Made by a program: the position numbers and the translations under genes
Source of the DNA: Piromyces finnis finn
Lineage: Eukaryota; Fungi; Neocallimastigomycota
Length of the DNA stretch: 64,000 nucleotides
NCBI GenBank assembly: GCA_002104945.1
Contig: MCFH01000083.1
Location: 104,387 to 168,386 of the forward strand
Reading direction: 5' to 3'
In this document: one piece after another, positions 13,862-45,526 of the stretch
Position numbering within the stretch: the stretch's first letter is position 1
Layout of the letters: every line of letters starts with the position of its first letter
The notes under the pieces: generated by a model
What the model was told of the DNA's origin: nothing
Database searches by the model: none
What the model saw: only the letters and a program-made list of their open reading frames with translations

Positions 13862-13890
13862 CTAACGAAAACCAAGAATACGTTAGGGTA

Positions 13891-14017
13891 TCTACCGCCG
13901 AGTAAAAGAAGAAAAAGAAGGAATAACTACTGGGTTGAAATTGAGTCTACCGCCGAGTAAAAGAAGAAAAAAGAAGGAATAACTACTGGGTTGAAATTGA
14001 ATCTACCGCCGCCGAGT
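13891..14017 (+). repeat. ~55-bp tandem repeat (2 copies plus a partial third) in the retrotransposon 5' UTR
   Basis: TCTACCGCCGAGTAAAAGAAG...GGGTTGAAATTGA starting at 13891, 13946 and 14002. Confidence 0.9.
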
Positions 14018-14225
14018 GGGAAGAAAGGACCAAGAATAACCATTAAGGATTGATTAGTAGTACAAAACTTGTTCGACACTGCTTTTTGCAGAACGCGTCT
14101 GAATAACTTTTGTATTGTTAGATATACTAAAATTATCTTTTATAAATAATTAAAAAAAAAAAAAAAAAAAAAAAAATTACTTACTTGAAATAGTAGTAAG
14201 AAAACATTTTATTTATTTTAGTAAG

Positions 14226-18818: not shown

Positions 18819-18854
18819 ATTAATCTCGCAGGAGCTCGACTTAGAGAGAGAGAT

Positions 18855-24010: not shown

Positions 24011-26809
24011 ATGGATATTCCTACAAATAACTGTATATGTTTAAAAAAACAGCAATCTTTAAAAGAAATATTAAATAATATATATAATCAAATCGAGATT
24101 ATAAAGCAACATCCTAATTTTAATTCTAAAAATGTGACCTTTGAATTAGAATTTAGACTTCAGAATAAATATACAAATATAGATGTGGAAGAATTCGTAA
24201 AGTATAACTCACATCAATATTTCGAATATTTATTGAAGGAAAACCAATCTACTAAATATAGAATAATTTGCAATTCTCAATACATTTCTAACAGTACCGA
24301 AAGCCAAGCCAGTAAAGATATTCATGATAATAACGATATTAATAAAATCAACTATGACAGCATCAATAATAATAACGTTAAAGACGACAATATTCATAAC
24401 AATAATAATAATAATAATAATAATAGTAATAATAATAGTAATAATAATAGTAATAATAATAGTAATAATAATAGTAATGAGATTACAAATAACATCAAAA
24501 CTAATAATAATAATGATAATTTAAATGGATATAAGGAACATGACAACTCAAGTTCAAAGTTAATTAAATATATTATATCCAATAGTGAAAAAGAAATTAG
24601 TATTGACTTTGACCAACACGTAGAGTATACAAAAAAAATAGCACTAATAACAGCTTACTATTTTGTATTTAAAATAGCACTTAATATTGAAACATCTTTA
24701 AATACTGAAAATCTTTTAAATTATTTAAAGATTGATAACGATATTACTGATAATGATAATGATAATGATACTAATAATGGTGATATTGATAATTATGATA
24801 ATAATGATAATAATAAAAACAATGAAAATATTAATATTGCTACAACTACTACTACTACTAATAATAATAATAATAATATTAACATTAATGTTAATAATGG
24901 TTTTAATAAATTAAATAAAATTTTTATTAAAGAGTCAAAAGAAATTACTATTATAAATTTTACTGAGCCAGTTCTGAAAAAAAGACGGTCTTTTATAATG
25001 AATCAAGATGTTCAAGTAGATGTTACCCACTACAATGAAATTAGTCAATTTGAAATAGATTTCACAAAAAATATTTATCATGACCAATTAGATATGGTCA
25101 AAATGGTTCATGATGTTATGCAAATTATTGATATATCCGGTTTCATTATAGATTATTTATTTATGCTCTTACCCAATTTCGAATTTCAAAAACCGATTAC
25201 ACCATCTCTGGACATACTATTCAAAAATGCTGAAACATTGATAAAAGATTCTTTCTTCGTATCAGCAAAAACCGATGGTATCAGAAAATTAATAATTGTT
25301 ATTAATAATCAAATTTATAGTATAACTGAAAATTTTTCAGTAGAATTTATAAGAGAAATTGAAGGTAATTACCATCTAATATTAGATTGTGAATTTATTA
25401 ATAATACTTTTATTCCTTTTGATGTTTTATACAGTGAATCCGATTTAAGAAGTTACTCTTACAAAGAAAGAATAAACATTCTTAATTGTTTAGATTACCT
25501 TAAATTTGAAAAAATTATAGTTAAAAAGGTTATAAAATGCTGTAAAGATTTTCAAGATATTCAAACATTTATATCATCGGCGGAATTAGAAAATACCACA
25601 CCAAACGATGGTATTGTCATAACCAGCGGAGCATCAACCTATTTTGAAAATACTAAAGTTTATAAAATTAAAACTATTAACACAGTAGATATCGAGTTTA
25701 ATGGACGCTATTTTTTAGCTAGGGAGCATAGAGTGAATAAATCTCTTTTAAATTTATCAGTAGAAAAATATAAAAATATATGTAAATTGTATAATAAGTT
25801 TAAAGTACAAAATCGCAAAACTACAAACCCTACTGAAAAGTATTATTATAAAAAGAAAATAGAAATTATAGAAGGCGTACCATGCAACAAAAAAGTAGTT
25901 AAATATCATCGTATTAAAAATAAAAAAATAAATTTTATAATAGAGTATGATTTAGATAATAAAAAATTTGTAAAGGTTCGCAAAGATAAATTAGTATCAA
26001 ATAGCATAAATACATTTAATAGTATTTTATTGGCTTCCTATCAAAAAATCAATATTGATATTTTTTCACCTAAATCCAATGTTCTAATGCGTAAATACCA
26101 CAATATAATAAAGCAAAATATTTTAAATGATTTTAGAGGAACTTTATTAGATATCGGTACAGGCAATGGCGGTGATATACACAAGTGGAATCATTTCCGT
26201 AAGATCGTTTGTGTTGAACCAAACCATGAAAAATTAAAAAATTTAAATAAAAGAATTTCAAATTCAGAAATTAAAAATAGAATCAAAATTATCCCGAATA
26301 ATATTCAGGAAGCTACGTTAAATGATCATTTTGATATTGCCACATGTTTTTTTGCATTAAATGATATGACTTATACCGACATATCAAGAATGCTAAAAAA
26401 TATCAAAAATTGTATAAGAAAAACATTTATTGTATTATTTTTTGATTCTTCATTATTTAGTGAAAATATAACTTCACCATCACTAATTTATCGAAAATGT
26501 ATTATTAATGAAAATAATAAAATTATAAATACAATCGATAAATTATCATTAACCTATCTGTTAAGTTGCCTTAGATATACGCATGGTGAATGCGATAATA
26601 TAATGTATGTAAATATTGTCGATTCAAATGTAACGAATCACTATGAATGTGGTATTAGTTCCATAAAAGTAATTAATATATTTAAGGAAAATGGGTTTGA
26701 ATTAAAAAAGCAATATTCAATCGAAAATTTTCCATTACTAAATGAATATCAAAATAAATATTCTTCTTTTCTTAAAGTCATTGAATTTTCAAATACTAAT
26801 ATTCATTAA
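24011..26809 (+). CDS. Trifunctional mRNA capping enzyme (RNA triphosphatase, guanylyltransferase, N7-methyltransferase)
   Basis: CYTH-type ELEFRL; GTase motif I KTDG, III ILDCE, IIIa FDVL, IV DGIV, V KIK; SAM-binding LDIGTGNGGD; N-rich inserts. Confidence 0.95.
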   Translation: MDIPTNNCICLKKQQSLKEILNNIYNQIEIIKQHPNFNSKNVTFELEFRLQNKYTNIDVEEFVKYNSHQYFEYLLKENQSTKYRIICNSQYISNSTESQASKDIHDNNDINKINYDSINNNNVKDDNIHNNNNNNNNNSNNNSNNNSNNNSNNNSNEITNNIKTNNNNDNLNGYKEHDNSSSKLIKYIISNSEKEISIDFDQHVEYTKKIALITAYYFVFKIALNIETSLNTENLLNYLKIDNDITDNDNDNDTNNGDIDNYDNNDNNKNNENINIATTTTTTNNNNNNININVNNGFNKLNKIFIKESKEITIINFTEPVLKKRRSFIMNQDVQVDVTHYNEISQFEIDFTKNIYHDQLDMVKMVHDVMQIIDISGFIIDYLFMLLPNFEFQKPITPSLDILFKNAETLIKDSFFVSAKTDGIRKLIIVINNQIYSITENFSVEFIREIEGNYHLILDCEFINNTFIPFDVLYSESDLRSYSYKERINILNCLDYLKFEKIIVKKVIKCCKDFQDIQTFISSAELENTTPNDGIVITSGASTYFENTKVYKIKTINTVDIEFNGRYFLAREHRVNKSLLNLSVEKYKNICKLYNKFKVQNRKTTNPTEKYYYKKKIEIIEGVPCNKKVVKYHRIKNKKINFIIEYDLDNKKFVKVRKDKLVSNSINTFNSILLASYQKINIDIFSPKSNVLMRKYHNIIKQNILNDFRGTLLDIGTGNGGDIHKWNHFRKIVCVEPNHEKLKNLNKRISNSEIKNRIKIIPNNIQEATLNDHFDIATCFFALNDMTYTDISRMLKNIKNCIRKTFIVLFFDSSLFSENITSPSLIYRKCIINENNKIINTIDKLSLTYLLSCLRYTHGECDNIMYVNIVDSNVTNHYECGISSIKVINIFKENGFELKKQYSIENFPLLNEYQNKYSSFLKVIEFSNTNIH

Positions 26810-27288
26810 AAATAAAGAAAAACAATTAACGAAAATATAATAAAATATATAATAATTATTATTATGATCATTATTATTTCTTCATTTATAATATTTAAAA
26901 TTTTATTTCAATAAAAGGATTTATATAAAGATTTTTATTATTTAAAACATATATATATATAAATGAATCTTTAGAAATTATAATAAAATAAATTAAAAAG
27001 ATTATTAAATATATATATTATTATTTTTTAAAATTCAATTCTATTAACTATACCTATATATATTAAATAAATATATGTATGTATGATTTATTATCTTAAT
27101 GCATTAGTCTAAAATATATTATGATATAAATAAATAAATAAATAAAAATTATATATTAAATATGAATTTTAAAATTAAAAAATTTTAAATTGATTTTAGT
27201 ATATAAATATTATAAACATGTTAAAACCGTTTTTCTAATAAAAAAAAAATAAAATAATATATATTTTATTCAATTAATAAAAACACAA

Positions 27289-29451
27289 ATGTATCTAGAA
27301 TTTGATTTATATAGTAATGAACAAATAGAAAAACTTTCCATTCTAATTTCAAAAAAGTATGAATTAACTGATAATACCACGTCATATATATTAGATCCTC
27401 AATTACCATGTAAACAATGCAAAAAAGTTATTGAATGTCCTGGCCATTTAGGAAGGATTCCCATTTACCAATACATTGTCCACCCATTATTTGTAAATAT
27501 ATTATGTAAAGAACTTACTCATGTATGTCCTATTTGTAAAAAATATAATGTTGCTCTTGATGTTAAATCACGATGCTGTGAAACACGAATAAAAGGTACT
27601 TCATTTTCCTTGCACAAGTTTAATGTGAAAAATACCAATTCAAATCAAAGGGTAAATCAAATAAAAATAGTGAAAATAAATCTCAATCCGAATATGCATT
27701 TTTATTTGGAAATCAATGGTTCACCGTTGTTAGGATGTATGAATTAATTCATACCTTTGATTTCAGTGAAAACCCTGAACTGAAAAATAAAATGCTGAAA
27801 GTATTTCTCAAAAATATACCTGTTTTACCCATAAATATGAGACCTTCAATTATGGATTCCAACAATATCATGATTCATAATAATATAACATCCATGTATA
27901 TAAGACTGTTAGATTTAAACTATCAGTTTAAAAGCAACACCAACCTTATTTCGTATGGTGGATATGGATTAAAAGTATTCAATCTATATAAAAAAATTCT
28001 TGGAATCCATAGTTCCACCGATACTACCGAAAATTCCGATAAAAATTTCATTAAGCAAATATTATCTGGAAAAACAGGAATTTTTAGAAGTATGTGTTTA
28101 GCCAAAAGACAAAACTTTTGTCTTCGTAGCGTCATCGTGCCAAATATAAATATTCCCTTGGACAAAATATTGATACCAAAAGAATTTACAGATCAATTAA
28201 TTCCCCATGGATATAAGCCAAATGACTATGTAATTATTAATAGACAACCTACACTCCAAACTACTTCTATATTATCCGTTCGCTCCTTTCCTAGTAGCAG
28301 TCGAACCATCCAAATTAATCCTCTAATAGCCAGTGTTTTTCAGGCTGATTTTGACGGAGATGAAATGAATATTTTTTGGCTACCAGGAGAGGAATCTAAA
28401 AAGGAATTGGCTACTAAACTGAACATTTCAAATAATATCCGTTCATTTAAGGATGGATCACTCATGATTAAATTTATTCAAGATACCTTAACTGGCTTAT
28501 ACAATATGACAAAGGATCACAGTATTGTCGAACCCCATATTATCGAAAACATATGTAAACGATTAAAAATATCAAAAAAGGAATGGAATATATTTTGTAA
28601 ATATTATAAATCACGAATGAATACCGATAAAATACCATATAAGCACTTACTTTCATTGTTGATTCCAAAATCACTAACTTTAAAAATGGGTGATAAATAT
28701 TTAGTAGACCATGGTATTCTACTTCACACTATTAATGGTGCCAATCAAACTGTATTGTTAAATTTATTACTCACTATGGTAACGATTTTTACTTGAATTT
28801 ATGTGGGATGTACAACGTATGGTTCATGAATACAATTTATTTCACATTATAAGTATTTCCATTTCAGATTGTATACCAGACCCAAGCATTGAAAATGAAT
28901 TTACATCCATTTTGGAAAAAATTCCTGACACTTTATCGGCTATACAACTACCAAATTTAGATTCTTCTATTATCTCTCAAGACAAAGATAGTAAAGAAAT
29001 AAAAAAAATAAGAAAGTATTATTTAGAAAATTATCCATTATTAGAAAGTTTATCTAAATCGATTAGCAATAATCTAACCAATATTGTCAATAGTGGTTCG
29101 AAAGGGAAAATCGATAATGTCATTCAAATTTTAATGTCAGTAGGAGTTCAAGCCGTTTTGCAAAGTTGCTATATTAAGAGTTCCTATTCCGAAGGACTTA
29201 CAGCAAAGGAACTATTTATACATTCAAAATCAGGCCGTGCTGGAATTATTTCAACTTCTCTCAACACTTCTTCTACAGGCTACATGCAAAGAGAACTGGT
29301 CAAGAGTATGGAAGACCTTATTACCGATAAAGATGGTTTTGTACGTGATTATAATAATGATGAAATCTATTATTATCCTTTTTCTACAAACGTCCAAGAT
29401 ATAGATGATTCATTTTTGGAATATGCTTTTTCAATGTCGTTAAAAAATTAA
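27289..29451 (+). pseudogene. RNA polymerase largest subunit, N-terminal part (A'-like; Rpb1 regions A-F), broken by three 1-nt frameshifts (real lesions or read errors)
   Basis: CPGHLGRI, LSGKTGIFR..AKRQNFCLRSVI, NRQPTL, catalytic QADFDGDEMN, SGSKG, GYMQRELVKSMED. Adding one base in each of the runs 27628-32 (A5), 28758-59 (T2) and 28786-90 (T5) restores a single ~721-aa ORF. Confidence 0.9.
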
Positions 29452-30325
29452 TAAGTATTAAATATTTATATTTACATTTATATTTATAAAATTTATATTT
29501 ATTACATTTGAAAATTTATTTGGTTTTTATTTATAATTTATAGTAAATAGAAATACATGTATGTAGAACAATAAAATTATAGTTTATTATACTATTATTT
29601 AAATAGAATAATAACTTTTTTTTTATTTTATTTTTATGATGACCAATGAAATTAAATTTACTGTATATCTTTCCTTTAATAATACATAATTCACTCTTAT
29701 TAATTATTATTGTAAAACTAATAAAATTATTTAAAATTTAATAATATTTAAAAAAAATAAAAATAAAAATAATTATATAAATTTGTTAATTTGAATTTAT
29801 AATTGACACTTTGATAATTAAATCTAAATATCCTTAAAAACCTTTTATATAATGTAATATTTTTTAAAAAAACAATATTATTATATTATTATATTATTAT
29901 ATATATCTAAAAATTTTAAATAATTGAAATATTATATATTTAATATTTATTTTTTAAAATATAATATATTTCCAAAAGTATTTCCTATGAAAATACTATA
30001 AAGAAATAAAAAAAAGTATTTTTATTTCATTAAATTCATGAACCAATCATAAATAATAGCAACTTTTTTTTTACATTATTATATTAATGTCAAATGAAAA
30101 TAAATGACGATTAGTATTGAGATATCAAAAATATTTTAATTTTGGAAAAACCATTTTATAAAAACTTTCTCATATCCTTGATTTGTTTTATGAATAATTT
30201 ATTAAAATTAAAATAAAAAATTATATTTATTGATAGCTTTATCTTTATAATTTTGATTAATATTAAATATTAAAAAATTAATAAATAATAAAAGTTAAGA
30301 GTGAAAGTGGAAGAAAATAAAATTA

Positions 30326-30955
30326 GTGGTGACGCACATGTCTTGGGACGATTTCTTTATAAAAAATTCTAAATTAGTATTACATATATATAATCAGTTG
30401 AGAAATACTTATTTTACACCACCACTGGAAGATGTATTTGGAATCTTCAAGTATGTCAAGTTAAGTGATGTTAAAGTTGTAATGATAGGTGATATGCCGT
30501 ATAAAAATACTCGAGATATTTCAGACATAGCTTTTGGATCTAAAAACTGTAATCCACCATTATTATTGGAACGTATTTACAAAAATTTAGAAGATACAGT
30601 AGCTACTTTTCAGCGACCATACAATCATCACTTAGATAAATGGCTAAATAATGGAATATTTTTATGTAATTTTTGCTTTACACGAACTATTGCTGATCCT
30701 TTACCATATCATTATCATTTGTTGTGGGAACCATTTATTAATAATCTAGTACAGTATATTTCAAATGACCACCCTGTTGTTTTTATGCTATTTGGTACAA
30801 AAGCCATTTCAGTTCGAAAGTCTATTAACGAAATTAAGTCATCGGTTGTAGAAGTTCCGCATCCTATTTATGAATATAATGAATTTAAAAAATCAAAATG
30901 TTTTTGCAAAGCTCGTGAACTTTCTTGTGAGTTGGGTTTTACTATTCAATGGTAA
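30326..30955 (+). CDS. ung: Uracil-DNA glycosylase family 1 homolog with divergent catalytic motifs; first ATG at 30338
   Basis: VKVVMIGDMPY (cf. GQDPY), IAFGS, PPLLLERIYKNL, LDKWLNNGIFLCN, VFMLFG, HP, IQW terminus. Confidence 0.9.
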   Translation: MVTHMSWDDFFIKNSKLVLHIYNQLRNTYFTPPLEDVFGIFKYVKLSDVKVVMIGDMPYKNTRDISDIAFGSKNCNPPLLLERIYKNLEDTVATFQRPYNHHLDKWLNNGIFLCNFCFTRTIADPLPYHYHLLWEPFINNLVQYISNDHPVVFMLFGTKAISVRKSINEIKSSVVEVPHPIYEYNEFKKSKCFCKARELSCELGFTIQW

Positions 30956-31436
30956 AATATATATTTATGTTAATAATTTTAAAATGTCATTAATTTAAAA
31001 AAATATAATACTGCTAATCAGATAATATTTTGATGTATTTAATCTTACAATTACCTTTTTTTTATTTTAAATTAAAATAAATATTTTATTTTTTTACAAA
31101 TATCCCAAAAATTAAAAATTAATCTCTTTCTTTACCTTTTTTTTTTAAATATTCATTATATAATTACTAATAAAATATGTAAAAAGAGTCTTATACATTC
31201 TGAAAATAGTAATACACAAAGTCTTTATGATATTTTAATTTATTTATTAATTTTATGAATTTATTAAAATAATTTTATATATAAATTGATTATTAATTTT
31301 TTAAAATATATATATAAAAAAAAATAAATATTCATATTTTAATAAATTAATATAGTAATAGTATGTATATATGTTATTACTAAAAAATATTATACTATAA
31401 TAATTAGTTTTTATTTAAATTAATTTTGAATTAATT

Positions 31437-32090
31437 TTGAAAATGGTATTAATTAAATGTACTTTATTTTTATTAACAATTATTACTTTGGTATATTCTA
31501 ATAATTTATTTAATTCTGATGTTTTTAATAAATTAAAAAATGAATTAGATAATTCTGATGTTTTCAATAAATTAGAAAATGAATTAGATAATTCTGATGT
31601 TTTTAATAAATTAGAAAATGAATTAGATAATTCTGATGTTTTCAATAAATTAGAAAATGAATTAGATAATTCTGATGTTTTTAATAGATTAGAAAATGAA
31701 TTAGATAATTCAAACTTTAAATCCAAAACATATAAATCTAATTTAACTAATACAAAAAGAACTACTACAACTAGAATTTTAACTACAAAATTTATAACTT
31801 CTGAAAAGACTTCCTCAAAAAGTAGTAGTAGTGTATTTACTTATACTAATAATTTTACTGTTCCTGATAGAACTTATATTGTTGGTACTAAAACCTATTA
31901 TGCTAAAACAGTCTCAACTTCAAAAAATCCTCAAATTCCAACTATATTTTCTAATAGCAATTGTGGAAGTAAACAAGACGGTATCTATATATGCAAAAAC
32001 AATCAATGCTGTAGTATGTACGGTTATTGTGGTACAAGCAGTAAGTACTGTGGTACAGGATGTAAACCAAATTATGGAAAGTGTTGGTAA
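31437..32090 (+). CDS. Secreted chitin-binding protein: signal peptide, 5 x 13-aa repeat, S/T linker, CBM18; ATG at 31443
   Basis: Hydrophobic N-terminus; C-terminal CGS...C..NQCCSMYGYCGTSSKYCGTGCKPNYGKC hevein/CBM18 pattern. Confidence 0.9.
   Translation: MKMVLIKCTLFLLTIITLVYSNNLFNSDVFNKLKNELDNSDVFNKLENELDNSDVFNKLENELDNSDVFNKLENELDNSDVFNRLENELDNSNFKSKTYKSNLTNTKRTTTTRILTTKFITSEKTSSKSSSSVFTYTNNFTVPDRTYIVGTKTYYAKTVSTSKNPQIPTIFSNSNCGSKQDGIYICKNNQCCSMYGYCGTSSKYCGTGCKPNYGKCW
31512..31706 (+). repeat. 39-bp coding tandem repeat x5 (NSDVFNKLENELD)
   Basis: Five near-identical in-frame units. Confidence 0.95.
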
Positions 32091-32530
32091 TATAATTATA
32101 AATATTACAAAAAAAAAGTTTTTTAAAAAGATCTTATTTAACAAATTATTATTATATTTTTTTAAAAAAAAAAATTAAAACACATAATTTTCAATTATTA
32201 TTAAAGTACTTTATAATATATAAATTTACTTTATCACTTAAAAAATATTTTATAATATCAAAATTAATATTTTAATTATAAATATAAATACTATTTTTTT
32301 TTTAAAAAAAAAAAAAGCAAATGTTTTAAAAAAAATATTAATATATATTATATTATTAATATTTCTTTTATTTTATTTGACATATCATTCTACTTTTATT
32401 ATTATTATTTATTATTTTTTTTAATATTTTAAATATATAATATTATATAATATTAAAAATTGAAAATAATTAATATTTAATTATATATTATTATATATTA
32501 TTATTTATTATTACTGCTATTATTAATTTT

Positions 32531-35500
32531 TTAAGTAAATCTTTTTGTTTTTCTTATAGCTTTTTTCATTAATTTTAATACTTTATTTTTTAATTTATTT
32601 TTTAAACTTAATTTATTATTGGTAGAATTAACAGAACCTAATTTATTGAGGTTACTTAATTTTGATTCCAAATCATTAGAATTGTTCGAATTATCTCCAT
32701 TAGTTAATTTAGAATGGGTATTAAATAACATTTTGGCACCACTACTAATTTCATTAAATTCATTAATAGCTTTACTGAATTGTTCACTATTTTCTCTACC
32801 AGCAGATTCACACAATTTAAATTTAGCTCCTTTAATGTGTTTATATAATTCATTCATGGCATTATCGATGTTACCTTTGATTTCATTTAAGTTTTCTTTT
32901 ACTTGTTCCTTTTCAACGGCATTTAAAGAGTTTTCGAATTCATTTATTTCTAATAAAAGATCATTCATATTTGAAAATAGATCGTGATAATTGCGTATTT
33001 CTAGGTTTTTTTCATTATTATTGTATATAGATTTTAAATCGATAAATCCGTCCTCATTATCTTTAACTTTTTCGACATCTCCAACTGCGTAATCATCGTA
33101 TTTATTTACAGACTCTATAAAATTCATAAATGTTCTAAAATTATGTTCTTGATATGTTTCAATATTACTCCAATTTTTACTTATGGAAACAAGCTTATTA
33201 GAAACTGATACTACTTCATCAATATCTTTTGGATCTCTGCTCATTGGACTAGCATTCTTTACCAGATTAATTTTTAATTTAGCACTATCAGAAATTTCAG
33301 ATATTCCATATTCATTGGATGAATTTTCAATAATTTTGACCAAGGCTTCACCTTCACTATTAACAGGAGTCTTTAAGAACCTATTGTAATCTTTTAGAGT
33401 TCCTTTGTTAACACTGTCATTTCCAAATGTAAATTTGATAGAGTCATCTCCTGCAGTATTAATGAAATCTTCAAATCTTTCCTTATTTTCTTCATTGTTA
33501 AATTTTTCTGGATTTTCTTTAAAAATTTTATTTATACCTTCATTTGCTTTTTTAGTTGCAATATAATTCAAACGATTTTTTAATTCATTATCGCTTTCAA
33601 TGTCTATCGGATTTATATCATCGGTAATTCCATCATTATTAACTTTATTTTCATGTATGCATACAGAAACTAAATCATTATAATTATTGATCAATTCAAG
33701 TAGATGATCGGCTTCTTCAAAATGACCCTCAGCAGACGAATATTCTTTCATATTTTGTATTTTTTTCATAATATTATTTTCTAACAATTTCATATTATTA
33801 AAAATATCTTCACTTAACTGATCCTTGTTTTCACCTAGCATTAATACTTTTATTTTAAGATTATCAAAGAATAGCTTAATATAGGGTTTTGAATTAATAT
33901 CATTGGAAATATAATCAATGAAATTATCTTTATCAGCATTCACATGATCTAAATTAATGATATTTGTAGATTTTATATTACTATCATCGATTAATTGAAT
34001 AGATTGTACATCATTATCATAAAAGAATTCCTTTTTTAGTTTTTTAGCATACGCATTTCTTAGTTTAAGAACAACTTCGGAATTGTTTTTTATCTCATCA
34101 CTATTTGAATTATCCTCCTCAAATACACTCCATAATTTATCAAACTCATTAAAAAGATATAATAATTTATTTTTGAATTCTTCTTTATCCTTTTCATTAA
34201 TATTCATATTTTCAATATCTTCACATAAAAGATCAACTTCTTTCGTTCTGTCTTCATCAAATTCTTTATTATCTTTACCAAAATTAAATAACATGCAAAT
34301 GTGCATTTCCTCGGAATTTTCGTTTAATAAATTATAAGAATTATTAATATTTTCAATTAATTTATCTTTATATAATTTAGATTGTGAATTTTTGTTAAAC
34401 TCAATATCATTAATTAAATCATCGCCATTATCGTCAATTAAATTAGTTTCATGATATTTTTCATGAATATCTTTAACTTTTTGTAAATTTACTTCCAATT
34501 TATTTATATCATCTTCATTAATATTTTCAATAAATTTATTATTTGAAATTTCTGATTTAGAAATATTATTTCTACAACCATTAATAAATTCATTGAAATT
34601 CTTAATAAATTCTATACTTTCTTTTTCACTAAATTGGTCTATATTTTTAATATAATCATTTACTAACCCGTCCCAAACATCATTTATCTTTTCAGCATTT
34701 TTATATAGTTTCTTTAAACTTAAATATTTAATTTTTTCGTTATTCTCATTGTCGTAATCATTATCATCATTTTCATTATCATTATCATCATTATCATTAT
34801 TATCATTAATATAAATATCGTCATCTAATAAAATATTTGAATTAATCTTTTTATCGCGAACCATAATTAAAGTATTAATCAAAGGATTGTTTACATCAAA
34901 ATCGGTAACCAGCAATGATGAACGTTGACACGATTCTCCTGCTCTTTTTCTTAATTTATTAAATGTACATAAATTTCCAGTATTTATTAATGACTGAATT
35001 GATTGAGAAAAAGATAATGTATTTTTCAATTCAATAATATGATTATTTTCTTTAACTATTCCTTCAAACTTATTATTTGTTTTTATAGGAAACATTTTCA
35101 ATATTGATAATATTTTAGTTAAATTATTAATTTTTTCAAGTTTTGTTTGAGATATTAATCCTTTACTTTGACGTTCTTTTATAAATTCTAAAATAATACC
35201 TTCTAACTTTTTATAAACTGGATTACTTTTTGAGCAAACAATATTGTCATCGGGATTAATATTTGCTGGACTTGTAAGAACACTGTTTTTCGCAATATAA
35301 CCCTTTACAGATATTGAATTAAGTGTATTATCATTTACGAAATAAGAAGGATCATTTGAGTTATTAGGGTCATATCTATTACCATTCTTTTCAAGAATTG
35401 TTCCAAATTGATATATAATTCCAATTCCTGGATCTTGTACTCTATTACTTGTAGTATAGTGTTTATGATAACCATTATTATAGTTTATTACATCATTGTA

Positions 35501-36358
35501 TGTTATACTATTTGGAGAAAATGAACTATCTACTGAATAAATTATATTATTATTGCTATCCTTAGTTTCAATTAAAGTAAAAGGATGTGACAATATTTTT
35601 AATTCCCCATCATCTATAATAAATGAATGTTTAATAGTATTGCCATTTTTTGTTGTGATTATAAAAGTATTGAGTTTATCATTATTATTCTTATCAAAAT
35701 CGCGAGTACTTTCAAAGTGTATATCTTTACAAAATATACTGGCATTTATGCATTGAGCAGCTATAGCAGCTATTAGATCTGATTTAGAAGAATAATTTGA
35801 ATTGTTTGTATTTAATGTAAGTTTATTTGATGGATTATTGATGTTAACAGGTTGATTTTGATTTCCTTTAAGGTCATTTATACTTTTATTTTTAATATAA
35901 TTATAAATATGCTTATTTATATTACTTTTTGATAAATAATTTATTTCTTTATTTTCTAATCCCAAAAATAATGAAATAGGATTATTATTTGTTGATTTTG
36001 TTAAAACATTTATTAAATCATATGAATTAATAATGTCGGCTGGATTTGTTCCTGTTGGAAAATATGTGTTATATATTGTATCAGCTAAATCGTGTAATTT
36101 ACTAAAAGTTACTTTATTATTTCTTAAATTAGGAATAATATCCTTAATATCTATAATTATATCATGACCAGTTTGACCACTAACATTAACTTTAAGTTCA
36201 ATCTTTTTATTATTACTATCAACGTCCATAACAATATTTCCATCATCATCACTCACTGCATATGTTAATATTGCAAACAATTCTTTCATGTGATCATGAG
36301 CACTACTATAAACTTTAATTATGAACAATAATATTAATATGAAATAAAAGAACTTCAT
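32531..36358 (-). CDS. Large secreted protein, 1275 aa, with a Cys-flanked dibasic cleavage loop; candidate two-chain toxin/effector
   Basis: Signal peptide MKFFYFILILLFIIKVYS; C464-TFNKLRKRAGES-C477; acidic, helical-looking C-terminal two thirds; no family recognised. Confidence 0.8.
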   Translation of the reverse strand: MKFFYFILILLFIIKVYSSAHDHMKELFAILTYAVSDDDGNIVMDVDSNNKKIELKVNVSGQTGHDIIIDIKDIIPNLRNNKVTFSKLHDLADTIYNTYFPTGTNPADIINSYDLINVLTKSTNNNPISLFLGLENKEINYLSKSNINKHIYNYIKNKSINDLKGNQNQPVNINNPSNKLTLNTNNSNYSSKSDLIAAIAAQCINASIFCKDIHFESTRDFDKNNNDKLNTFIITTKNGNTIKHSFIIDDGELKILSHPFTLIETKDSNNNIIYSVDSSFSPNSITYNDVINYNNGYHKHYTTSNRVQDPGIGIIYQFGTILEKNGNRYDPNNSNDPSYFVNDNTLNSISVKGYIAKNSVLTSPANINPDDNIVCSKSNPVYKKLEGIILEFIKERQSKGLISQTKLEKINNLTKILSILKMFPIKTNNKFEGIVKENNHIIELKNTLSFSQSIQSLINTGNLCTFNKLRKRAGESCQRSSLLVTDFDVNNPLINTLIMVRDKKINSNILLDDDIYINDNNDNDDNDNENDDNDYDNENNEKIKYLSLKKLYKNAEKINDVWDGLVNDYIKNIDQFSEKESIEFIKNFNEFINGCRNNISKSEISNNKFIENINEDDINKLEVNLQKVKDIHEKYHETNLIDDNGDDLINDIEFNKNSQSKLYKDKLIENINNSYNLLNENSEEMHICMLFNFGKDNKEFDEDRTKEVDLLCEDIENMNINEKDKEEFKNKLLYLFNEFDKLWSVFEEDNSNSDEIKNNSEVVLKLRNAYAKKLKKEFFYDNDVQSIQLIDDSNIKSTNIINLDHVNADKDNFIDYISNDINSKPYIKLFFDNLKIKVLMLGENKDQLSEDIFNNMKLLENNIMKKIQNMKEYSSAEGHFEEADHLLELINNYNDLVSVCIHENKVNNDGITDDINPIDIESDNELKNRLNYIATKKANEGINKIFKENPEKFNNEENKERFEDFINTAGDDSIKFTFGNDSVNKGTLKDYNRFLKTPVNSEGEALVKIIENSSNEYGISEISDSAKLKINLVKNASPMSRDPKDIDEVVSVSNKLVSISKNWSNIETYQEHNFRTFMNFIESVNKYDDYAVGDVEKVKDNEDGFIDLKSIYNNNEKNLEIRNYHDLFSNMNDLLLEINEFENSLNAVEKEQVKENLNEIKGNIDNAMNELYKHIKGAKFKLCESAGRENSEQFSKAINEFNEISSGAKMLFNTHSKLTNGDNSNNSNDLESKLSNLNKLGSVNSTNNKLSLKNKLKNKVLKLMKKAIRKTKRFT

Positions 36359-36652
36359 TTTTACTTTATTATTTAATTTTTGTTAAATATCAAAGTTTAA
36401 TTAATAATCATTTTAAAAATATAATAAATAATTATAATTCAACTAATTTATTATTTTTAATATTATTATAATTATATATATAATAAAATACTATATTTTT
36501 ATCAAAAAATTTGATATGATTAAAATATATTTTAAAAATATGTTATTATCAAGTTATCAAGTGATTTTATTTTTTATAATAGTTAAATAAAATAAAATTG
36601 TTTAAAATTGGAATATTTTGTACTTTTTTTTTATAAATATATACTTCATTAA

Positions 36653-38098
36653 ATGGATAATACAGAATTATTTTATAAAGAATTAAATAGTACTTGTAAT
36701 CCTGATACATTATTAAAAATTGCAAAAAAAGGAATTTTTTTATATGAGCCTTTATTTACAAATAATAAAATAAAAGATCATGAAAATGTAATTGAAATCA
36801 GTATATTAGCTGGACAATATTTTATGATATTTAATAGAAAGCAGTATCAAAAACTAGTAGAATTAATTTCTCGGAAAGATTTCACAATTTATCCACATCT
36901 AAATAATCATTATATTATTTTTAATATATTTATTATAAATAAATATTTTATAGAACAATTAATGATCGAAAAAAATAATGATTTTTTATTATTAATACAT
37001 GAGCGTTTATCTAATAAGATAACAATATTATTGTATTTATATAAGTATAATTATATATCCACTAAAATATTTTATTCATTTTATTATTATGGTAATAAAC
37101 ATAATTATTTTAATTTTGTATTTGAGTTGTATGAATATTTTTACCATAATGAATTTAAAAATTTGTTTGAAAATACATTTGATGCTCTCGATATTACTGG
37201 TAAATCTAAAATAATTTCTGAAATGTTACTTTTTTATGGAAGAGATATTAATATATTTAAATATTGTATAAAGAAGATTAAGCAATATCATTTATATATA
37301 CGATATGATTATTTTCGAATACCTTTACATTTTCCAATAGAGTATTTAAAAGAATATAATGATGATGTATTTTTTCCAAATGAATTGTTTGTTACTTGTG
37401 AAGATAAAAAAATTGAAGAATTTATAAATACATTTTTTTCTGATTATTTCATTCTTGTATTAAGTAATAATTATAATGATAAATATAAATGTTATGAAAG
37501 ATTTTATTCAAGATATAATATTGATATTGACAAACTTTATAAATTTAAATATTATAAAAAAAAGGATATAAATTTAGATTATATATATAATTCAGAAGAA
37601 TATAAAAATTTCTTAGAAGGAAATAAGAATTTCAAGGGAATAACATATAATACAAGAGATAATATTATAAATTTAATTAATATAAAAAAAGAAAAGTACA
37701 AATACTATAAACTTAAAAGAATGTTTATAAAAAAGAATTTTAACAATTTATATTTTGTTAAAAAGTACTTGAAAGAGTATAATGAACTTGAAAAAATATT
37801 AAGTGATCCTGAATATATTTTAAGTCAAAATATTGAAATTTGCATTAATGAATATTATGTTATGTTATTTTGTTGTTCAATTTCAATGATTCACAATAAT
37901 TTTAATTATTTTATTATTAAAGCATTATTATATAATATTTTTGATAGTTCTTATTTTGATGTACTTGATAAGAAACTTGTTTTTTTTAAGTATACGTGTG
38001 AAGAACCATATATTAGAAAAATATTTAATATATTATGTTCAACTCCACATGAAGTATTTAATAATTATATTTTAATAAAAGATTATAATCCTAATTAA
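36653..38098 (+). CDS. Hypothetical cytoplasmic protein, 481 aa, rich in Y/F/N/K
   Basis: Long ATG-started ORF without signal peptide, divergent from the 1275-aa gene; very AT-rich codons. Confidence 0.75.
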   Translation: MDNTELFYKELNSTCNPDTLLKIAKKGIFLYEPLFTNNKIKDHENVIEISILAGQYFMIFNRKQYQKLVELISRKDFTIYPHLNNHYIIFNIFIINKYFIEQLMIEKNNDFLLLIHERLSNKITILLYLYKYNYISTKIFYSFYYYGNKHNYFNFVFELYEYFYHNEFKNLFENTFDALDITGKSKIISEMLLFYGRDINIFKYCIKKIKQYHLYIRYDYFRIPLHFPIEYLKEYNDDVFFPNELFVTCEDKKIEEFINTFFSDYFILVLSNNYNDKYKCYERFYSRYNIDIDKLYKFKYYKKKDINLDYIYNSEEYKNFLEGNKNFKGITYNTRDNIINLINIKKEKYKYYKLKRMFIKKNFNNLYFVKKYLKEYNELEKILSDPEYILSQNIEICINEYYVMLFCCSISMIHNNFNYFIIKALLYNIFDSSYFDVLDKKLVFFKYTCEEPYIRKIFNILCSTPHEVFNNYILIKDYNPN

Positions 38099-38309
38099 AA
38101 AAAAATATTCTTTTTTTTTTTAGATTTTTATAAATTGAAAGAATTGTTATTTTTATATATATGTATTTGGTATATATTTTACTTTATGTATATAAATTTA
38201 TATAATTTTTAAAAGGCAAATTTAATATGTTTTATCATAAATATTATAAAATGATTTTTTTACGAATTTAAATAATTAACAAACAAATTGTTATATATAG
38301 TATTTTATT

Positions 38310-38768
38310 ATGGATTTGCTATTAATATCGTTGATAACTTTTACATTTTTTGCTAATTATATTTTAGCGAAAATAGATAAAAAGGAGTTCTGTTTGCATA
38401 ACTATAATGGTATCACAAAAATAGTTGATCCCTTTTATATCAACTCTAAAAATGAAACGATTTATTTTGATACTATTGAAGAGTATTCGAAATACATTGG
38501 ACCTACATGGTTTGGCGTAGCCTATTGTGGTAATAATACTATTGTTAATAATGTAGGACGTTATTTTAAATATATTGGAGATGATGTTAATCCATCAACA
38601 GATACTACACCAACAGAAATAAGCGATAAATCAGATGAAGCAGAAACTGAAGGAGTATTTGAAGAAGATGACATGTACAACGATGATGCAAATGAAGTTT
38701 TTGTTGTTAATAAAGTAAGTTCCAAGAAGCAATCTAAAGTCAAAAGGTACATGAATTTTGTTAAGCGA

Positions 38769-38799
<31 letters not shown>

Positions 38800-41700
38800 G
38801 TGATAATGGTAATGATAATGGTAATGACAATAAAAATTTTTTGAATCTACATACCAAAGAAGAATTTACAAATTATTATAGTAATCTTTATGATAAGTTG
38901 ATGGATCCTGAAAAGCCATTAAAATGTGTTCCATTGAATAGTGTTAACCCAGCGTACAATCCCTATCATCCTTTATTGATTAGAACAACCAATAGAGAAA
39001 GAGCAAACATTATAAATAATATGGGTACAGTGTATGGAGGTAATAGTAATAAAATAATGGAATTTATTAAGGATAGTAAAGATATACAACCATGTGGAAT
39101 TGTTATGAAGATGAAAGATTCATCCATTTCGTGTAGTGTTCGAATTTCAAATACAATTGATGAAAGTGTAACTATTACGGACAGCAATGGGAAAACTTAT
39201 CATCAAGCATATGGAGTTGTTTATAGTGATACTAATTCATTTTCTGATGATATTAATACAGTTTTAGAATTGTCAGTATCTTCGACAGAGAGTAAATCAC
39301 TTTCATATTCCGAATCCGATACGGTTTCTAAATCAGCTGAAAGAGTGCTTTCATATACAAAATCCAAAGGTAAATCTGTTACAGATTCAAGTGAAGACAC
39401 TCACACTGATACTCACGAGAGCTCTTATGCTTATACAGAAAGTGAAGAACATTCTCATGCAAGAAGTGATGGTGGTGAAGTTGTTGATGAGACTAATTGG
39501 AGTAAAAGTGAAGAAATATCACATGTTGAAGAATATAGTCGAATGGAAAGGAAGGATTATGAAAATGCCAAATCAAAAGTAAAAAGAAATGATGTAGTAT
39601 CGTTATGCAAACGAGGAGGTATTTGTATTCCTTGTGATGTTGTTGATACCGTTACAAATGTAGTTGGTACTGCTGCTAATATAGGCTTGCAAATACAATC
39701 TAATAATTTACAAAAAGAGTCTAATGATATAGCCAGAAATTCCACAGAAGCTGCTTACATAGCTAATGATATCGCTAGAAATTCCACAGAAGCTGCTTTT
39801 ATTGCTAATAATATAGCAAGTAATGCCAATGAGATTGCAAAAGACGCTAATGCTGCTTCATGGAAGGCAAATAATTTAACGTTACAGTCGATAGAATCTC
39901 AAGAAGATATAGCAAGGAAAGACAGAGAATTGCAAAGAGAACTTAATGAACTTAATGCACAACAAGAACTTGCTATTGCATTTGCAGGTACAAGAACTAC
40001 AAGTGATAGTTATAGTACGGTTAAAAGTGAAGGTGGAAGTCATAGTCAGTCTGAAAATTGGTCTGATACCTATACCGATTCTACAGGTATTAGCAACACC
40101 TGGACTACATCTGATGGATATTCCGATTCACATACTCAAGGTCATTCGGAAACAACTACTGAAGAAAGTACTCGATCTGATTCTATTTCACATTTATTAA
40201 CAAATACATTTACTAAAGATAAAGGTTGGAGTTTTGAATCTTCTAATACTAATTCAGCATCCAATAGTTATTCTTACGGCAAATCAAATACAATATCCCA
40301 TACAAATGATATTTCCATAGACCAGTCTATTGAAGTATCGGCTGAGAGATCATATCAGAAATCGGTTTCAAGATCTAACACCGAAGAACATAGTAAAACT
40401 CTCGAATTCCATATTCCAGATAATGGTTGTTACAATCTAACAGCTGTTCCTTTATTTAGATCAGAAGTAAATATTTGGGCGTGTGGTGACTATGATATAT
40501 ACGGAAATTATTATACACGTTTTCAAAAAACCATTCATCCAATTGAATTAACAGATTTTGCCAAAACACCAATTGAATGCAATAAGGAGCAAATTGATCC
40601 AGTTATTATTGATAACAATTATCAGAATAGAAATTATATTCCTGATAACGGCATGCCTAAAAACACACTAATTTCAGGTCAAGTTTTAAATAAAGGCAAT
40701 AAAATTAAATCACGCAATGGTAAATATTATTTTGGATTATTGGATGATACAGGAGAATTAGCTTTATGTAAAGGTGAGTTCAAAAAAGAAAATATTGTAT
40801 GGAGTAATGGTATAGATTTTTTGAAAGATGATAAATACAATCTTAAATTTAAAGTAAATTATAACGGACATTTGGTTGTTACAGCAAAGAATATATTTTC
40901 AAGATATAGAGTAATGGATACTGATCAAAATAATGATGTAAATATTAATATTAATAATAATTCCAAGTTATCAAAGCGTCGTAGTCCATTAGATAGATTA
41001 TCTTCATTACTAGATAATAAAACAACAACAACAACGACAACAACTTCTACTACTACAACAACTACAACTACAATTAATACTACTACAACTAATGAAACTA
41101 ATTCTATTGCTATTACAACATCCACAATCGAAAATACAAATAAAAATACTAGTAAAGAGAGTTCAACATCTTCATCTAATTTAATTGTTTCAAAGGCAAC
41201 CGAGAATTTAAGTAGCTTAATATTTTCTAGTACTTATTCTACCACATCTAATGAACCTACATCGACTGCTGTTAACACATCTACTAATACAAGTAGTTCT
41301 GAACCAGTTAAAATGGCTAATTATAGAAATACCGAGGAATTCATTATATGGGATTCATTACCTAAAGATTTACCATTCAATGTAGGCTACTCAGATGGAT
41401 CGGGATACTCATTGGTCTTAAATGACGACGAAAATACCGATTATTGCACTTTAACATTATATGATGGTGTAGGTGTAAAAATTTGGGAAATTAAGCCAGG
41501 GCAGTATGATTATATAGGATATGCGTTTCCAAGAGAATATAATATGCCATTAGCATTCGAAACTAAAAAAGCTGAAAAAGATATTAGTAAGTATGATTTT
41601 CACAATGTTATTAGACCGGAAGTAAAAGATGTATTTATTCATAAAATGAGCTTCACTTGTGATACAAAGATGCGCGAAAATGAGGCGTTGGTATCAAGTA

Positions 41701-44700
41701 ATGGCAAATATAGATTTTATGTACAACCATCAGGTAATTTAGTTATTAAAGAAAATTCCAGAACGATGTGGTCTTCATTAACTGCTAATATTGAAATATT
41801 TGAGGCACCATATATTTTGTCATTCTCACCATTGGGCGAACTATTATTGAGAGATAAAAATAAGTTTTTAATATGGCACACTGTAAACGGAGATTCATTT
41901 AAAAATACAGAAAAGATTGAAGACATTCGTAAATTTTCCTTAATATTATCAGATGATGGGGAATTATATATCGAGGATAATTATCATAATATGTATTGGA
42001 GTTCATGGCCTGTAAGATTATATAATCAACATATACGATATGTTGAGCCAATGATTTATGATATATCCATATGTAAGGAAACTATAAGAAATAAATACAT
42101 CTACGATCTCTTTTCCAATCCAAATATTTATAATTATTATGAAGATCCAGATGACTCAACTACCTATGTTCGTAAATACTATGTTAATAATTTATTACCA
42201 AATGAGTCATTGCTTTCAATATACCATGCTACTTTAAATGTTACAGATACTGAAGTTGTATTTTATTATAAGTATAAAGATAAAATGCATTCAAAGGAAT
42301 TGGCCAGTTGCAGTAAAAATTCGAATGTTAAGGAATTGAAATTAGAAAAAAATGGTTTATATTTGTATTGTAATGATAACACCTATAAAACTATTGCTAT
42401 GGTACCAGAGAATCAAAAATATTATCGTCTTTCTATTGAGAAAAGATATAAAATGGATTATCCTGATTTAATGATATACAACACCAAAACTAAGGAGTTC
42501 TTATGGGGATTGAATCCAGTTAAATTTTTGTATAGTGTTGTTCCCAATAAAACTAAATATGGTGAATACAATAGAATTGTTACTGCTAATACATTTACAA
42601 CATTTGATAGATTAATATCTTATAATGGTGGTGGAAATCATGTGTATATGTCCAATTCTCATGGATTAGAATTGAGTAATTCAGCATACACTGAATTTAA
42701 GAGCTTATCCCTATTGGATGATAACTTTTATATTAATGATGAAATAATTATTAAGAATGAAAAAAATATGGAACTTTCTTATGATGGTATCAATGATAAA
42801 TTAATAATCACAAATGATGCCGATACATTGTGGGAATTATTTGGAAGAAAAAAATGTAATAAATTTATTTCTTCTGATGAAAATTGTAATACTCTATATT
42901 CCTTTAGTGAGTTTTACAATGACGAAAATGAAAAAACTTTTCATTTAGCTTCATATTGGCTATTATATAAAAGTAATACGTTTTATATTTTTAATATAAT
43001 AGAGTATCTTAAAACCATTAATGAGCCAATATTTTCAATGAAACTAAATGAAAATGGTGACATTACATTAAACAATAATAAATATATATTTCACAAAGAA
43101 TATTACAAAAAGGATCAATATTACGAATTAATTACCAATAATTATAATTTAATATTAAAATCAAGTACTGGAGAATATAAATGGGCACTTGGAGATATCT
43201 TCAACCGTGCCTATAATGCAGATATCTTAAAAATTGGAGATTCTTTCAAAGAAGGTGAAATGTTATTCTGTGATGATTATTCTCTAATTATTCTTGGCGG
43301 TAAATTATTGTATAGAGACCACAAAACATTTAATGAAGTCGACATTTTAAATTTAAAAAATAACTATGTTTCAAAATTAGCTATAGGATCTAGAAGTTTA
43401 ACATTCTTTGATAAAAGTAATGAACCAATTTATGCGATTATGTCACCTGATAGTGTTGATTATCCTGACAGCTGTCTTAAATGTGATAAAATCAATAAAG
43501 GAGTGTATTGGGATGACGGTAATGGAAATTCATTATGGAGTTATCCTAAGAATTTACCAAAAACCGATACTACTACAATTACTTCAACTACCACCACTAC
43601 CACCACAACCACCACTACTACTACTACTACTACCACTAGCATTATGCAAACTCCTCAAACTATTGTTTTTACTACACATGTTACTAACTACTCAACCGAA
43701 TATATAACAGAATCACAAACTAGTATAGCCACTAAAACTAGTTATAGTTATGCAACTTATACCAATGTAAGTTATCAAGGAAGTATTGGATCAAAGTATT
43801 ACCTAGGTATAAATGAATTAAAAGAATATGTCACACTTGAAGCTAAATATGGTGGAAATAATAAACAGCCAAGCAAGTATATTAAATGGTTAATTAAATC
43901 TGAAAAGGAACCTTCATATATGCATATAGTAAATAATAATGGTGAAATATCAAATTATTGTTTAGACGTAGGTAAAAGTAAAAACAAATATTCTTACTAT
44001 TTAAGAATTAGTAAATGTTCAGAAGACACTTACTTATTTAAATATAATGTGCCATTTACTGATTATGAAAATTCAAAAATAAATAATCCAAATAATATTA
44101 TTGTTTATAAAAACGATAATTCTTTATTTACTAATAGTAACGGTGTACCATATTGTATTTATTACAGCGATACATTGCGTATAGAAGAGTGTAAAGATCC
44201 TAAAGATTATGAAAATTTCAATTGGAAAAAATACAATAATGGCTATTTTACTGAAACTTCCACAAAGACTAAATTACAAACTTCTACTGAATATCTTACC
44301 AAGAGCACAGTAGTACCAACCATATTAACTTCAACAATAACTTCAATTTTATTACCTACTTTTTCACCTACTTTTTCACCAACTACGTCTACTACAACGA
44401 ATATAAGTAGTATTACTACTAAGGATATAAATCCTACACAATCCATTGATTTACTATTTATTCCTTTAACCTTTAAAGGTATACAAAATGGAAATTCCAG
44501 TATTTTCTTAAGTGTTCCAAAATTAGGAACAAATGAATCTTTTGATATGAGAATATCTGACAGCTACTATACATGGTTTGTTACTTCAACTACAAATCCT
44601 TCTTATCTTTATCTATCTGAAGGTATTTCAGGAAATATTGGAAATCCAACAAATTATTGTTTGGATTTAGGCGACTTTGTTCATAATGAAAAGGATAACT

Positions 44701-44933
44701 ATAATTATTTACGTATCGAAAATTGTTCTAATGTAAAGTATAAATTTATGTATAATGCTTCAGATAATGCTAAATATGGAACAATTAATGTTTACGATAT
44801 CAATGGTAATCCTCTTTCTATTAATAATGACTTTATGTGTATTTACTATTCAATGACACCTCGTGTCGATAAATGTGTTGATCCATCCCTTAATACTAAA
44901 ATGGGTTGGGAAATGTCTCTAATAAAAAATTAA
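38310..44933 (+). CDS. Giant secreted multidomain protein, 2207 aa: S/T-rich beta-pore-former-like region, bulb-type lectin domains, two ricin-B-like domains
   Basis: Signal peptide; several KR sites; alternating S/T strands at ~39130-40480; B-lectin-like blocks (SRNGKYYFGL..GEL, SSNGKYRFYVQPSGNLVI..WSS) at ~40670-40890 and ~41670-42010; duplicated NYCLD.G..LRI..C..W domains after T-rich linkers. Confidence 0.85.
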
Positions 44934-45526
44934 TAATAAATTAAATTATTAATTATTATTATCATCAAATAATTATAATTTATTCTATTAATTAATTAAA
45001 ATGTATAGATTTATAGAAAAAATAAAAAAATAAAAAAAATAGATAAAAATATAAAGATAGAAATAAAATAATAATAATAATAATAATAATAAAATATGAA
45101 ATATGAAAAATATTTAAAATAAATAAATAAATAAATAAAAAGATAAATAGAAAAAAACAAAAAAAAAAAAGAAATAAATAGGATAGGGTCAATAAAAAAT
45201 ATATATATAATAATAACAAAATTATATATATTTTTTAAAATTTTAAATATTTCTTTTTTAGTATCAGTTTTCTATCTTCATTTATTGTTATTTTTTTTAA
45301 ACCGTATAATATATTATTTATTATGATTATAATAACAAAATTTTCATGTAAAGAAATTATAAACTATTTTATATTTTTATATTACTTTTATAAAATGATT
45401 TTATAAGATTTTAATAAAAATAATTATAAAATAAAATAAATTAGAAATTACATATATATAAATAAATATATATATATATTTAAAAAAAAAACTATAAATT
45501 CAAGCAAAAATTTTTAAACAGAAGAA

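Follow-up and report, generated by a model that had tools for sequence, protein, structure and literature searches.

What is a protein of 2207 amino acids, with lectin-like domains and two long Ser/Thr-rich tracts, doing on a mobile element in the genome of an anaerobic gut fungus? The question is raised by 64,000 nucleotides of the Piromyces finnis contig MCFH01000083.1 (the window), which hold an element that by its gene content is giant-virus-like and of the fundsalphavirus type, and on it one unbroken open reading frame (ORF) without stops for this protein (Table 1). The original prediction was of a pore, or of a subunit for delivery, that is directed to glycans and has a very long beta-stem. 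This is still the best reading, although the hairpin proved not to be continuous and the pore fold finds weak matches; we consider it fairly probable that the protein is the lectin-targeted, tube-forming subunit of a secreted killer system on the giant-virus-like element.

The argument starts from the two stem arms, compared among 13 full-length gut-fungal family members with a helical insert, near-duplicates and fragments being excluded. Arm 1 has 137 residues in all 13, arm 2 counted to a conserved Trp has 164 in 12 and 165 in one, and the arms align without gaps at 30–88% identity; the insert between them ranges from 119 to 283 residues in the same proteins. Along the whole length of both arms Ser, Thr and Gly recur with period 2 (power 48 and 60; 0 of 100,000 shuffles), against a power of 0.01–5.7 in the protein's own three Thr-rich linkers. 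One face of the arms is small, with Ser, Thr, Gly or Ala at 106 of 142 positions, 20 Asp or Glu, one Lys or Arg and no aromatic residue, and would line the lumen of a barrel; the opposite face carries large side chains, polar at the distal ends, where the face analysis of the window protein found no hydrophobic belt. The predicted long alternating Ser/Thr/acidic tracts thus stand, with an alternation far above chance, but what alternates is small with large side chains instead of polar with hydrophobic ones. We regard it as very probable that the arms form an oligomeric beta-barrel. Known pores rise 2.7–2.9 Å per residue, and 120–137 residues at this rise would give a barrel of 32–40 nm. If the reading is right, no pore-forming protein has to our knowledge been proposed to have a beta-barrel stem of nearly this length. 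The barrel of Vpb4Aa2, given as 92 Å, would be exceeded three- to fourfold (PMC13462110).

The stem had been taken for one continuous amphipathic hairpin, and here the prediction fails: the beta-tip by which the relatives would enter a membrane is exchanged in the window protein for a Lys-Arg (KR) site followed by a hydrophobic segment and then a helix. From 31 sequences with both anchors, 18 insert-free relatives, from chytrids and other assemblies, were picked by eye. Their stems measure 241–517 residues, both stem halves alternate in all 18 (power 7.5–87), and in 16 of them the most hydrophobic 11-mer lies at 0.45–0.55 of the stem, where 14% would be expected, a count that carries no formal probability for relatives that are hand-picked, related and hence not independent. 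The midpoint hydrophobic piece is a Gly-rich turn. With alternating halves and a hydrophobic turn at the midpoint, the relatives are built as an oligomeric beta-barrel that ends in a membrane tip would be; the aerolysin-type amphipathic transmembrane beta-hairpin is present in them and absent from the tip of the window protein. There, the AlphaFold model has a helix of about 100 residues made of N-x-I-A heptads, of which the insert members have 0–21, and the predicted 14-residue tandem repeat was found in two copies and a degenerate third. KR occurs in the insert of 12 of the 13 members, and in all 12 the top hydrophobic 19-mer of the insert lies after the last KR, in nine within 12 residues. 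Since the barrel has no hydrophobic belt, membrane entry was assigned to segment 436–461 on the helix, an assignment that we slightly favour.

When a tree was built from 35 rows, with P0038 dropped, the gut-fungal proteins with the insert formed a single branch (100/100). KR-plus-hydrophobic tips are also found in P0055 and P0094, and because these two nest among beta-tip proteins, their placement suggests that such a tip arose repeatedly; we infer the direction of the tip change on a tree rooted at its midpoint. The distance between anchors reaches 517 residues in P0080 and 542 in P0055, and by the same estimate the barrel of P0080 would measure about 70 nm. At the other extreme, P0048, P0025 and P0076 have 22, 224 and 242 residues between anchors, the stem being absent or shortened, and may be gene-model artefacts or truncated paralogues.

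The core on which the stem would stand was modelled by AlphaFold for window residues 201–870 and for the pore module of the relative P0092, with a mean pLDDT of about 50 in each and 67–92 in the cores. The P0092 model has a confident core, and its strand order fits a five-strand aerolysin core with an insertion between strands 2 and 3. The window model matches Dln1 (Z 3.6, 117 residues aligned, root-mean-square deviation (rmsd) 10.6 Å) and the lamprey immune protein (Z 3.5), and the top rows for the P0092 model are the pores of lysenin (Z 3.5), epsilon toxin (2.7) and aerolysin (2.6), all of which we take to be aerolysin-type; these matches, with Z of 2.6–3.6 and rmsd of 6–12 Å, span both halves of the core. 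In addition, lysenin is found by profile search at E 1.9, the best Pfam pore-toxin match is PF03318 (ETX_MTX2) with 8.8 bits against a cut-off of 22 and E 1.8 on arm 2 (residues 638–703), and the Atlas feature neighbours have an Aerolysin/ETX share of 0.76 and 0.82–0.85. For the anthrax protective antigen (PA), CDTb and Ib, only 63 stem residues match (Z 2.4–2.5), and the window protein has no Pfam or PDB sequence match to PA14/calcium or binary-toxin-B domains. Comparison with the aerolysin, PA and CDTb folds, as had been proposed, thus points weakly to a pore toxin, and Foldseek found no PDB match at E ≤ 0.001 for either model. A wide VIA search with the window model was dominated by generic long helices; the best BFVD match, a 194-residue protein (E 4e-5, TM 0.15–0.23, rmsd 34), was not interpreted. 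The whole-protein Pfam scan gave no family, the domains surfacing in fragments only. Overall, the core is probably aerolysin-derived; membership of the window protein in the aerolysin family is likely, with signals below threshold and no beta-tip, and from the models the protein is predicted to work like a beta-pore protein.

Glycan targeting would depend on the lectin domains. The bulb-lectin-like blocks were recovered by Pfam B_lectin (E 4.2e-7, the 30.8 bits falling just short of the cut-off, 32.4), by fold (Z 5.7, rmsd 2–3 Å) and by a profile match to LlpA/pyocin L (E 1e-13), and a local profile places them at residues 794–861, 1122–1191 and 1206–1235. The mannose site of bulb lectins has the motif QxDxNxVxY; no intact copy occurs here, the nearest being QPSGNLV at 1139. 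A KR in the loop interrupting the first block is found in 8 of 11 homologues. The two ricin-B domains of the original prediction were not confirmed: in Pfam the first reaches E 0.19 and the second has no match, a local ricin profile gives about 0 bits, and the first has no PDB match. The two C-terminal four-Cys domains share 37% identity (E 1e-15), and a C-terminal Ricin_B is present in several homologues.

Secretion of the protein is a prediction from hydropathy only, made on an intact ORF with a hydrophobic N-terminus (KD19 1.4–1.8). KD19 exceeds 1.2 only at positions 1–5, 438 and 1999–2001, the last in a Thr linker, and the same hydropathy profile gives no C-terminal transmembrane anchor. 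The several KR sites noted earlier lie at residues 145, 152, 425, 434, 889–891 and 1378. Both motifs said to bound the region from about 39130 to 40480 are present (39129–39173 and 40392–40451), so that it ends at 40451. None of the runs listed as containing the gene is on record as RNA; contigs from four runs, whose status as RNA is a guess and which are not counted as proof of expression, span the gene, with no GT-AG joint among those listed. The database model P0014, labelled Piromyces finnis, agrees with residues 268–864 except for a predicted intron that removes residues 725–748 (24 residues); this intron was not adopted, as contigs of three runs, which may be DNA, read through it. Over 38839–40450 the contigs are 95–99% identical with many substitutions, and joints skipping 40479–44128 occur; such sequences suggest further near-identical or deleted copies of the gene in the same organism.

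Table 1. Positions of the element, of the long-stem gene and its parts, and of the neighbouring candidate genes
Feature	Positions in the window	Strand	Remarks
Fundsalphavirus-type element	1..57735		PolB, D5 helicase, capping enzyme/methyltransferase, SNF2 helicase, UDG-like, RPB2, split RPB1; left end beyond the window
Long-stem lectin protein, 2207 residues	38310..44933	+	Whole ORF; ORF reading
Likely signal peptide, residues 1–20	38310..38369	+	Predicted from hydropathy
N-terminal half of cap/core, residues 201–274	38910..39131	+	Motif C-x-P-L-x-S-x-N-P-x-x-N-P-Y-H, conserved across the family; equivalent P0092 region has pLDDT 83–92
Predicted beta-barrel stem arm 1, residues 275–411	39132..39542	+	137 residues
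Insert in place of beta-tip, residues 412–558	39543..39983	+	KR 425–426 and 434–435, hydrophobic segment 436–461, heptad helix about 458–558; 42-nt repeat D19
Predicted stem arm 2, residues 559–706	39984..40427	+	148 residues
C-terminal half of core, residues 707–770	40428..40619	+	pLDDT 67–79 over most; conserved C..P......W.C
Bulb-type (GNA) lectin blocks	40662..42035	+	First block split by a KR site (889–891) and a Thr-rich linker (903–1000)
Two related four-Cys domains on Thr-rich linkers	43773..44930	+	Possibly beta-trefoil lectins
Likely secreted protein, 1275 residues, candidate cargo	32531..36358	-	N-domain, Cys464-KR-Cys477 loop (34928–34969), acidic C-terminal region (net -60), basic tail
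481-residue protein, candidate immunity or chaperone	36653..38098	+	No signal peptide; homologue in the P0099 cassette; putative role

The family to which the gene belongs occurs in Neocallimastix, Anaeromyces, Piromyces and Pecoramyces, with more distant relatives in chytrids (Geranomyces, Rhizophlyctis, Thoreauomyces, Powellomyces, Cladochytrium, Irineochytrium, Globomyces and Dinochytrium) and in further assemblies; a search of the 50%-cluster set gave 84 matches at E ≤ 0.001. The N-P-Y-H cap motif, the long Ser/Thr region and the bulb lectins are common to the family, and the C-terminal modules vary (Ricin_B, PAN, LysM, GH16, WD40). The Neocallimastix models P0004, P0007, P0008 and P0011–P0013 finish with part of arm 1 and the KR tip of a second paralogue, a sequence arrangement that suggests tandem paralogues on those elements. 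A tblastn search of plasmids gave no match, nor did a scan of GTDB genomes with family alignment A5 or scans of IMG/VR with A3, A5 and A7, which were pattern-limited and do not imply absence. No description of the family or of the cassette considered next was found in the open-access literature searched, and the terms toxin, lectin and Neocallimastig- are all absent from the main text of a paper on Mycodnaviridae (PMC13533422).

Two neighbours of the long-stem gene may complete the system. The likely secreted 1275-residue protein has 12 Lys or Arg in its last 30 residues, and its N-domain found nothing in Pfam, PHROG, PDB or Atlas, the whole protein having no informative match to a family, to PDB or in Atlas. 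In Piromyces sp. E2, the model P0099 fuses homologues of the 481-residue ORF (34% identity), the 1275-residue ORF (24–29%) and the long-stem protein. A 35-kb IMG/VR record encodes a 705-residue Cys-KR-Cys protein with a signal-like start (L006, 19258–21375, forward strand), which belongs to no known family. Its C-terminal region is acidic as well (net -24), and 8 of 30 residues in its basic tail are Lys or Arg; its best local alignment with the 1275-residue protein is the Cys-KR-Cys loop (E 0.015). The Cys-KR-Cys neighbour thus occurs in three elements, and both whole copies have the basic tail. That the 1275-residue protein is the cargo and the 481-residue protein its immunity factor is a tentative assignment, which may well be wrong. 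Head to head with the 705-residue protein lies an ORF of 266 residues without a signal peptide (L006, 18459–19259, reverse strand), the two being a second candidate cargo/immunity pair.

Further genes surround this cassette. Adjoining the candidate cargo and within the element, 31437–32090 (forward strand) encodes a likely secreted protein that contains 13-residue tandem repeats and ends in a chitin-binding (hevein) domain; yeast killer toxins have chitin-binding subunits, which this protein recalls. Directly after the long-stem gene, 45527–46246 (forward strand) encodes a Cys-rich protein of 239 residues with hydrophobic N- and C-termini, resembling those of glycosylphosphatidylinositol-anchored proteins; it has no informative family match.

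Fundsalphaviruses were reported from Piromyces, Neocallimastix, Anaeromyces and Pecoramyces (Gong, Zhang, and Han 2020, PMC7017919), and the window element is like these endogenous elements in its D5, SNF2 helicase, S-adenosylmethionine methyltransferase, RPB2, and RPB1 split into N and C genes. From the gene set given there (PolB, D5, SNF2, methyltransferase, RPB2, split RPB1, RPB5), all but RPB5 were found here. The word toxin does not occur in the main text of that paper, nor was a description of the secreted cassette found there (PMC7017919). The window has a GC content of 13–33%, and direct repeats no shorter than 3.6 kb flank the element (1–3619 and 54130–57735), 99.4% identical and 54.1 kb apart. 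Each repeat contains an identical ORF of 732 residues, weakly like a DUF5757 protein of an IMG/VR element (E 0.079), and direct repeats with a shared ORF suggest tandem copies or an integrated circle. Between D5 and RPB2, an intact Ty3/gypsy retrotransposon (13243–19464) has 612-bp long terminal repeats that are 99.8% identical. Had the long-stem gene been an ordinary host gene, unlinked to such elements, the original prediction would have lost its ground; linkage was seen wherever gene context is visible, that is, in this window, in P0099 (cassette only) and in two IMG/VR records, the chytrid homologues and five metagenome loci too short to reach neighbouring genes lying outside this set. In those two records (51% and 43% GC) a beta-tip relative lies between SNF2 and RPB1-N. 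The 51%-GC record, the one of 35 kb, has the same replication and transcription genes as the window element; it is compact (L006, L010, L045; about 17 genes), with dispersed intergenic repeats, and its ends share a 116-bp direct repeat, which is no proof of circularity.

We propose a mechanism along the following lines. After secretion the protein would be cleaved at the dibasic site KR434–435, and its lectin domains would bind glycans on the target surface. The subunits would assemble into a ring, their 137- and 148-residue arms zipping into a hollow beta-barrel of about 32–40 nm, and entry into the target membrane would fall to the freed hydrophobic segment (436–461), carried on a helix about 15 nm long, giving a total reach of about 50 nm across a wall or glycocalyx. 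The acidic lumen would then attract the basic tail of the 1275-residue cargo, which would thread through, the 481-residue protein providing immunity. Translocating pores are described as having acidic luminal clamps and lytic pores as having charge pairs (PMC13462110). An acidic lumen, as a mark of translocating pores, fits a basic-tailed cargo. Were the cargo step wrong, the protein would act alone as a lytic pore through which ions leak.

Several observations weigh against this reading. The stem has pLDDT < 50 in both models; all five aerolysin signals, though concordant, fall under the thresholds of their tools; and no Pfam pore-toxin family, PF01117 and PF03318 included, exceeds its cut-off in the whole protein, its fragments or its homologues. 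Moreover, the first Foldseek ranks for the P0092 model go to MAC and the leukocidins, unrelated families of beta-pores, so that long strands alone appear to draw beta-pore hits. At the tip, the post-cleavage segment is moderately hydrophobic (KD19 1.26, and 0.47 and 0.72 in two other members), and KR is missing from one member, the gene model P0022; the dependence among the 18 beta-tip relatives was mentioned above. As for the cassette, a Cys-KR-Cys loop occurs in 11 of the 123 ORFs of at least 500 residues in the fetched loci, so it is not rare by itself, and the searches with the candidate cargo revealed no catalytic domain. Finally, RPB1-N lies in three ORFs and RPB2 in two here, each being a single ORF in the IMG/VR relative, and given this splitting the present copy of the element may be decaying or may contain assembly errors; its secreted genes are intact.

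Among the alternatives, a single-component lytic pore survives best. The long-stem protein would then be a stand-alone killer toxin and the neighbouring secreted protein an independent one; a precedent is K62, a fungal aerolysin-type killer toxin likely to be cut by Kex2 (PMC12691639), with an insertion loop of 25 residues as opposed to stems of 241–517 in the present family. Complete beta-tips in the chytrid homologues would suit such a pore, as would the fact that binding between the long-stem and 1275-residue proteins is a prediction only. Nevertheless, the charge pattern of the lumen is closer to that of translocating than of lytic pores, and the layout of the candidate cargo, an acidic body with a basic tail, is kept in two distant elements; we therefore rate a purely lytic role as unlikely.

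A non-toxic structural tube or adhesin would be a rigid stalk whose lectin heads hold on to plant fibre or to partner cells, while the hydrophobic segment sits in the fungus's own membrane. Arms without a hydrophobic belt, the many lectin domains on Thr-rich linkers and the lack of a toxin family over cut-off all agree with this, and so do close variants, P0107 among them, which suggest several gene copies. A stalk, however, has no need of an acidic, basic-free inner face of small residues, which is a property of channels, nor does it account for the pore-type hydrophobic beta-tip kept in relatives or for a gene that moves on a mobile element together with another protein that is secreted and KR-cut. 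This reading appears quite improbable to us.

Lower still we place the proposal that the tube is the element's own transfer device, replacing a capsid and carrying element DNA or a bound protein between cells by means of a fusion-peptide-like tip. No capsid family was found among the 25 ORFs of the window or the ORFs scanned from the 35-kb record, which would favour it (a search with PF04451 covered only the 17-kb record L007 and, with no match in any control, is uninformative); the family is present in distant elements; and KR, hydrophobic segment and heptads recall class I fusion proteins. But an acidic lumen would repel DNA, the C-terminal anchor of such proteins is missing, and the gene is in none of the other loci flanking PolB, for which 10-kb flanks only, mostly of distant viruses, were available. 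Least probable by far, and largely refuted, is a disordered or mucin-like spacer without a fold, with which the low pLDDT of the arms would agree, because strict alternation over 137–148 residues, zero indels in 13 members and midpoint symmetry are all foreign to the real Thr linkers of the same protein.

The tube-forming killer subunit can be set beside several known systems. With aerolysin/ETX-MTX2 proteins (lysenin, epsilon toxin, Dln1, lamprey immune protein, K62) it shares Ser/Thr-rich alternating strands flanking an insertion and followed by further core strands, lectin receptor domains, a Gly-rich hydrophobic tip in the relatives, and weak fold and profile matches; it differs in having a KR-cut helical insert in place of the beta-tip and in reaching no Pfam cut-off. 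The likeness to binary-toxin translocases (anthrax PA, CDTb, iota Ib, Vpb4; Bacterial_Exotoxin_B) is one of working: a long extramembrane barrel, dibasic activation, an acidic lumen, if the small face is indeed luminal, and possibly a separate cargo with a basic terminus. Here that partner is a candidate that co-occurs in three elements and has no enzyme family match, and the window protein itself matches neither PA14 nor a binary-toxin-B family. In class I viral fusion proteins and Vip3-type needles a protease site is followed by a hydrophobic segment and a heptad helix; the window protein has the same order, but its helix sits on a predicted beta-barrel, and no transmembrane anchor, second heptad region or homology was found.

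At the level of the whole element a parallel can be drawn with the yeast killer virus-like elements pGKL1/2 (zymocin). These bring an RNA polymerase and a capping enzyme of their own, secrete a disulfide-linked toxin processed at KR, and have a chitin-binding protein, an immunity gene and a protein-primed polymerase. Compared by layout and not by sequence, the window element is alike in its RNA polymerase, capping enzyme, toxin candidate, chitin-binding protein and candidate immunity gene, and differs in its giant-virus-type PolB and D5 primase-helicase and its likely delivery by a beta-tube. A broader proposal, which as a whole we consider somewhat unlikely, is that zoosporic fungi harbour killer elements in the form of replicons that derive from giant viruses, lack a capsid and arm their host with a two-part injector. 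In it, an aerolysin core would be stretched to a translocation tube of 35–70 nm, whose tip in gut fungi would be a hydrophobic segment released by a protease and borne on a coiled coil of tunable length, and a disulfide-linked, KR-released effector would be sent through cell walls, the immunity gene lying adjacent.

If the reading holds, the family would show how a single scaffold changed in nature from entering membranes by a beta-hairpin to entering them by an alpha-helix, at three places of its tree. Fundsalphavirus elements would gain a reason to persist, as killer systems, and the long-stem protein would be a candidate weapon of anaerobic gut fungi against rumen bacteria, methanogens, ciliates or other fungi.

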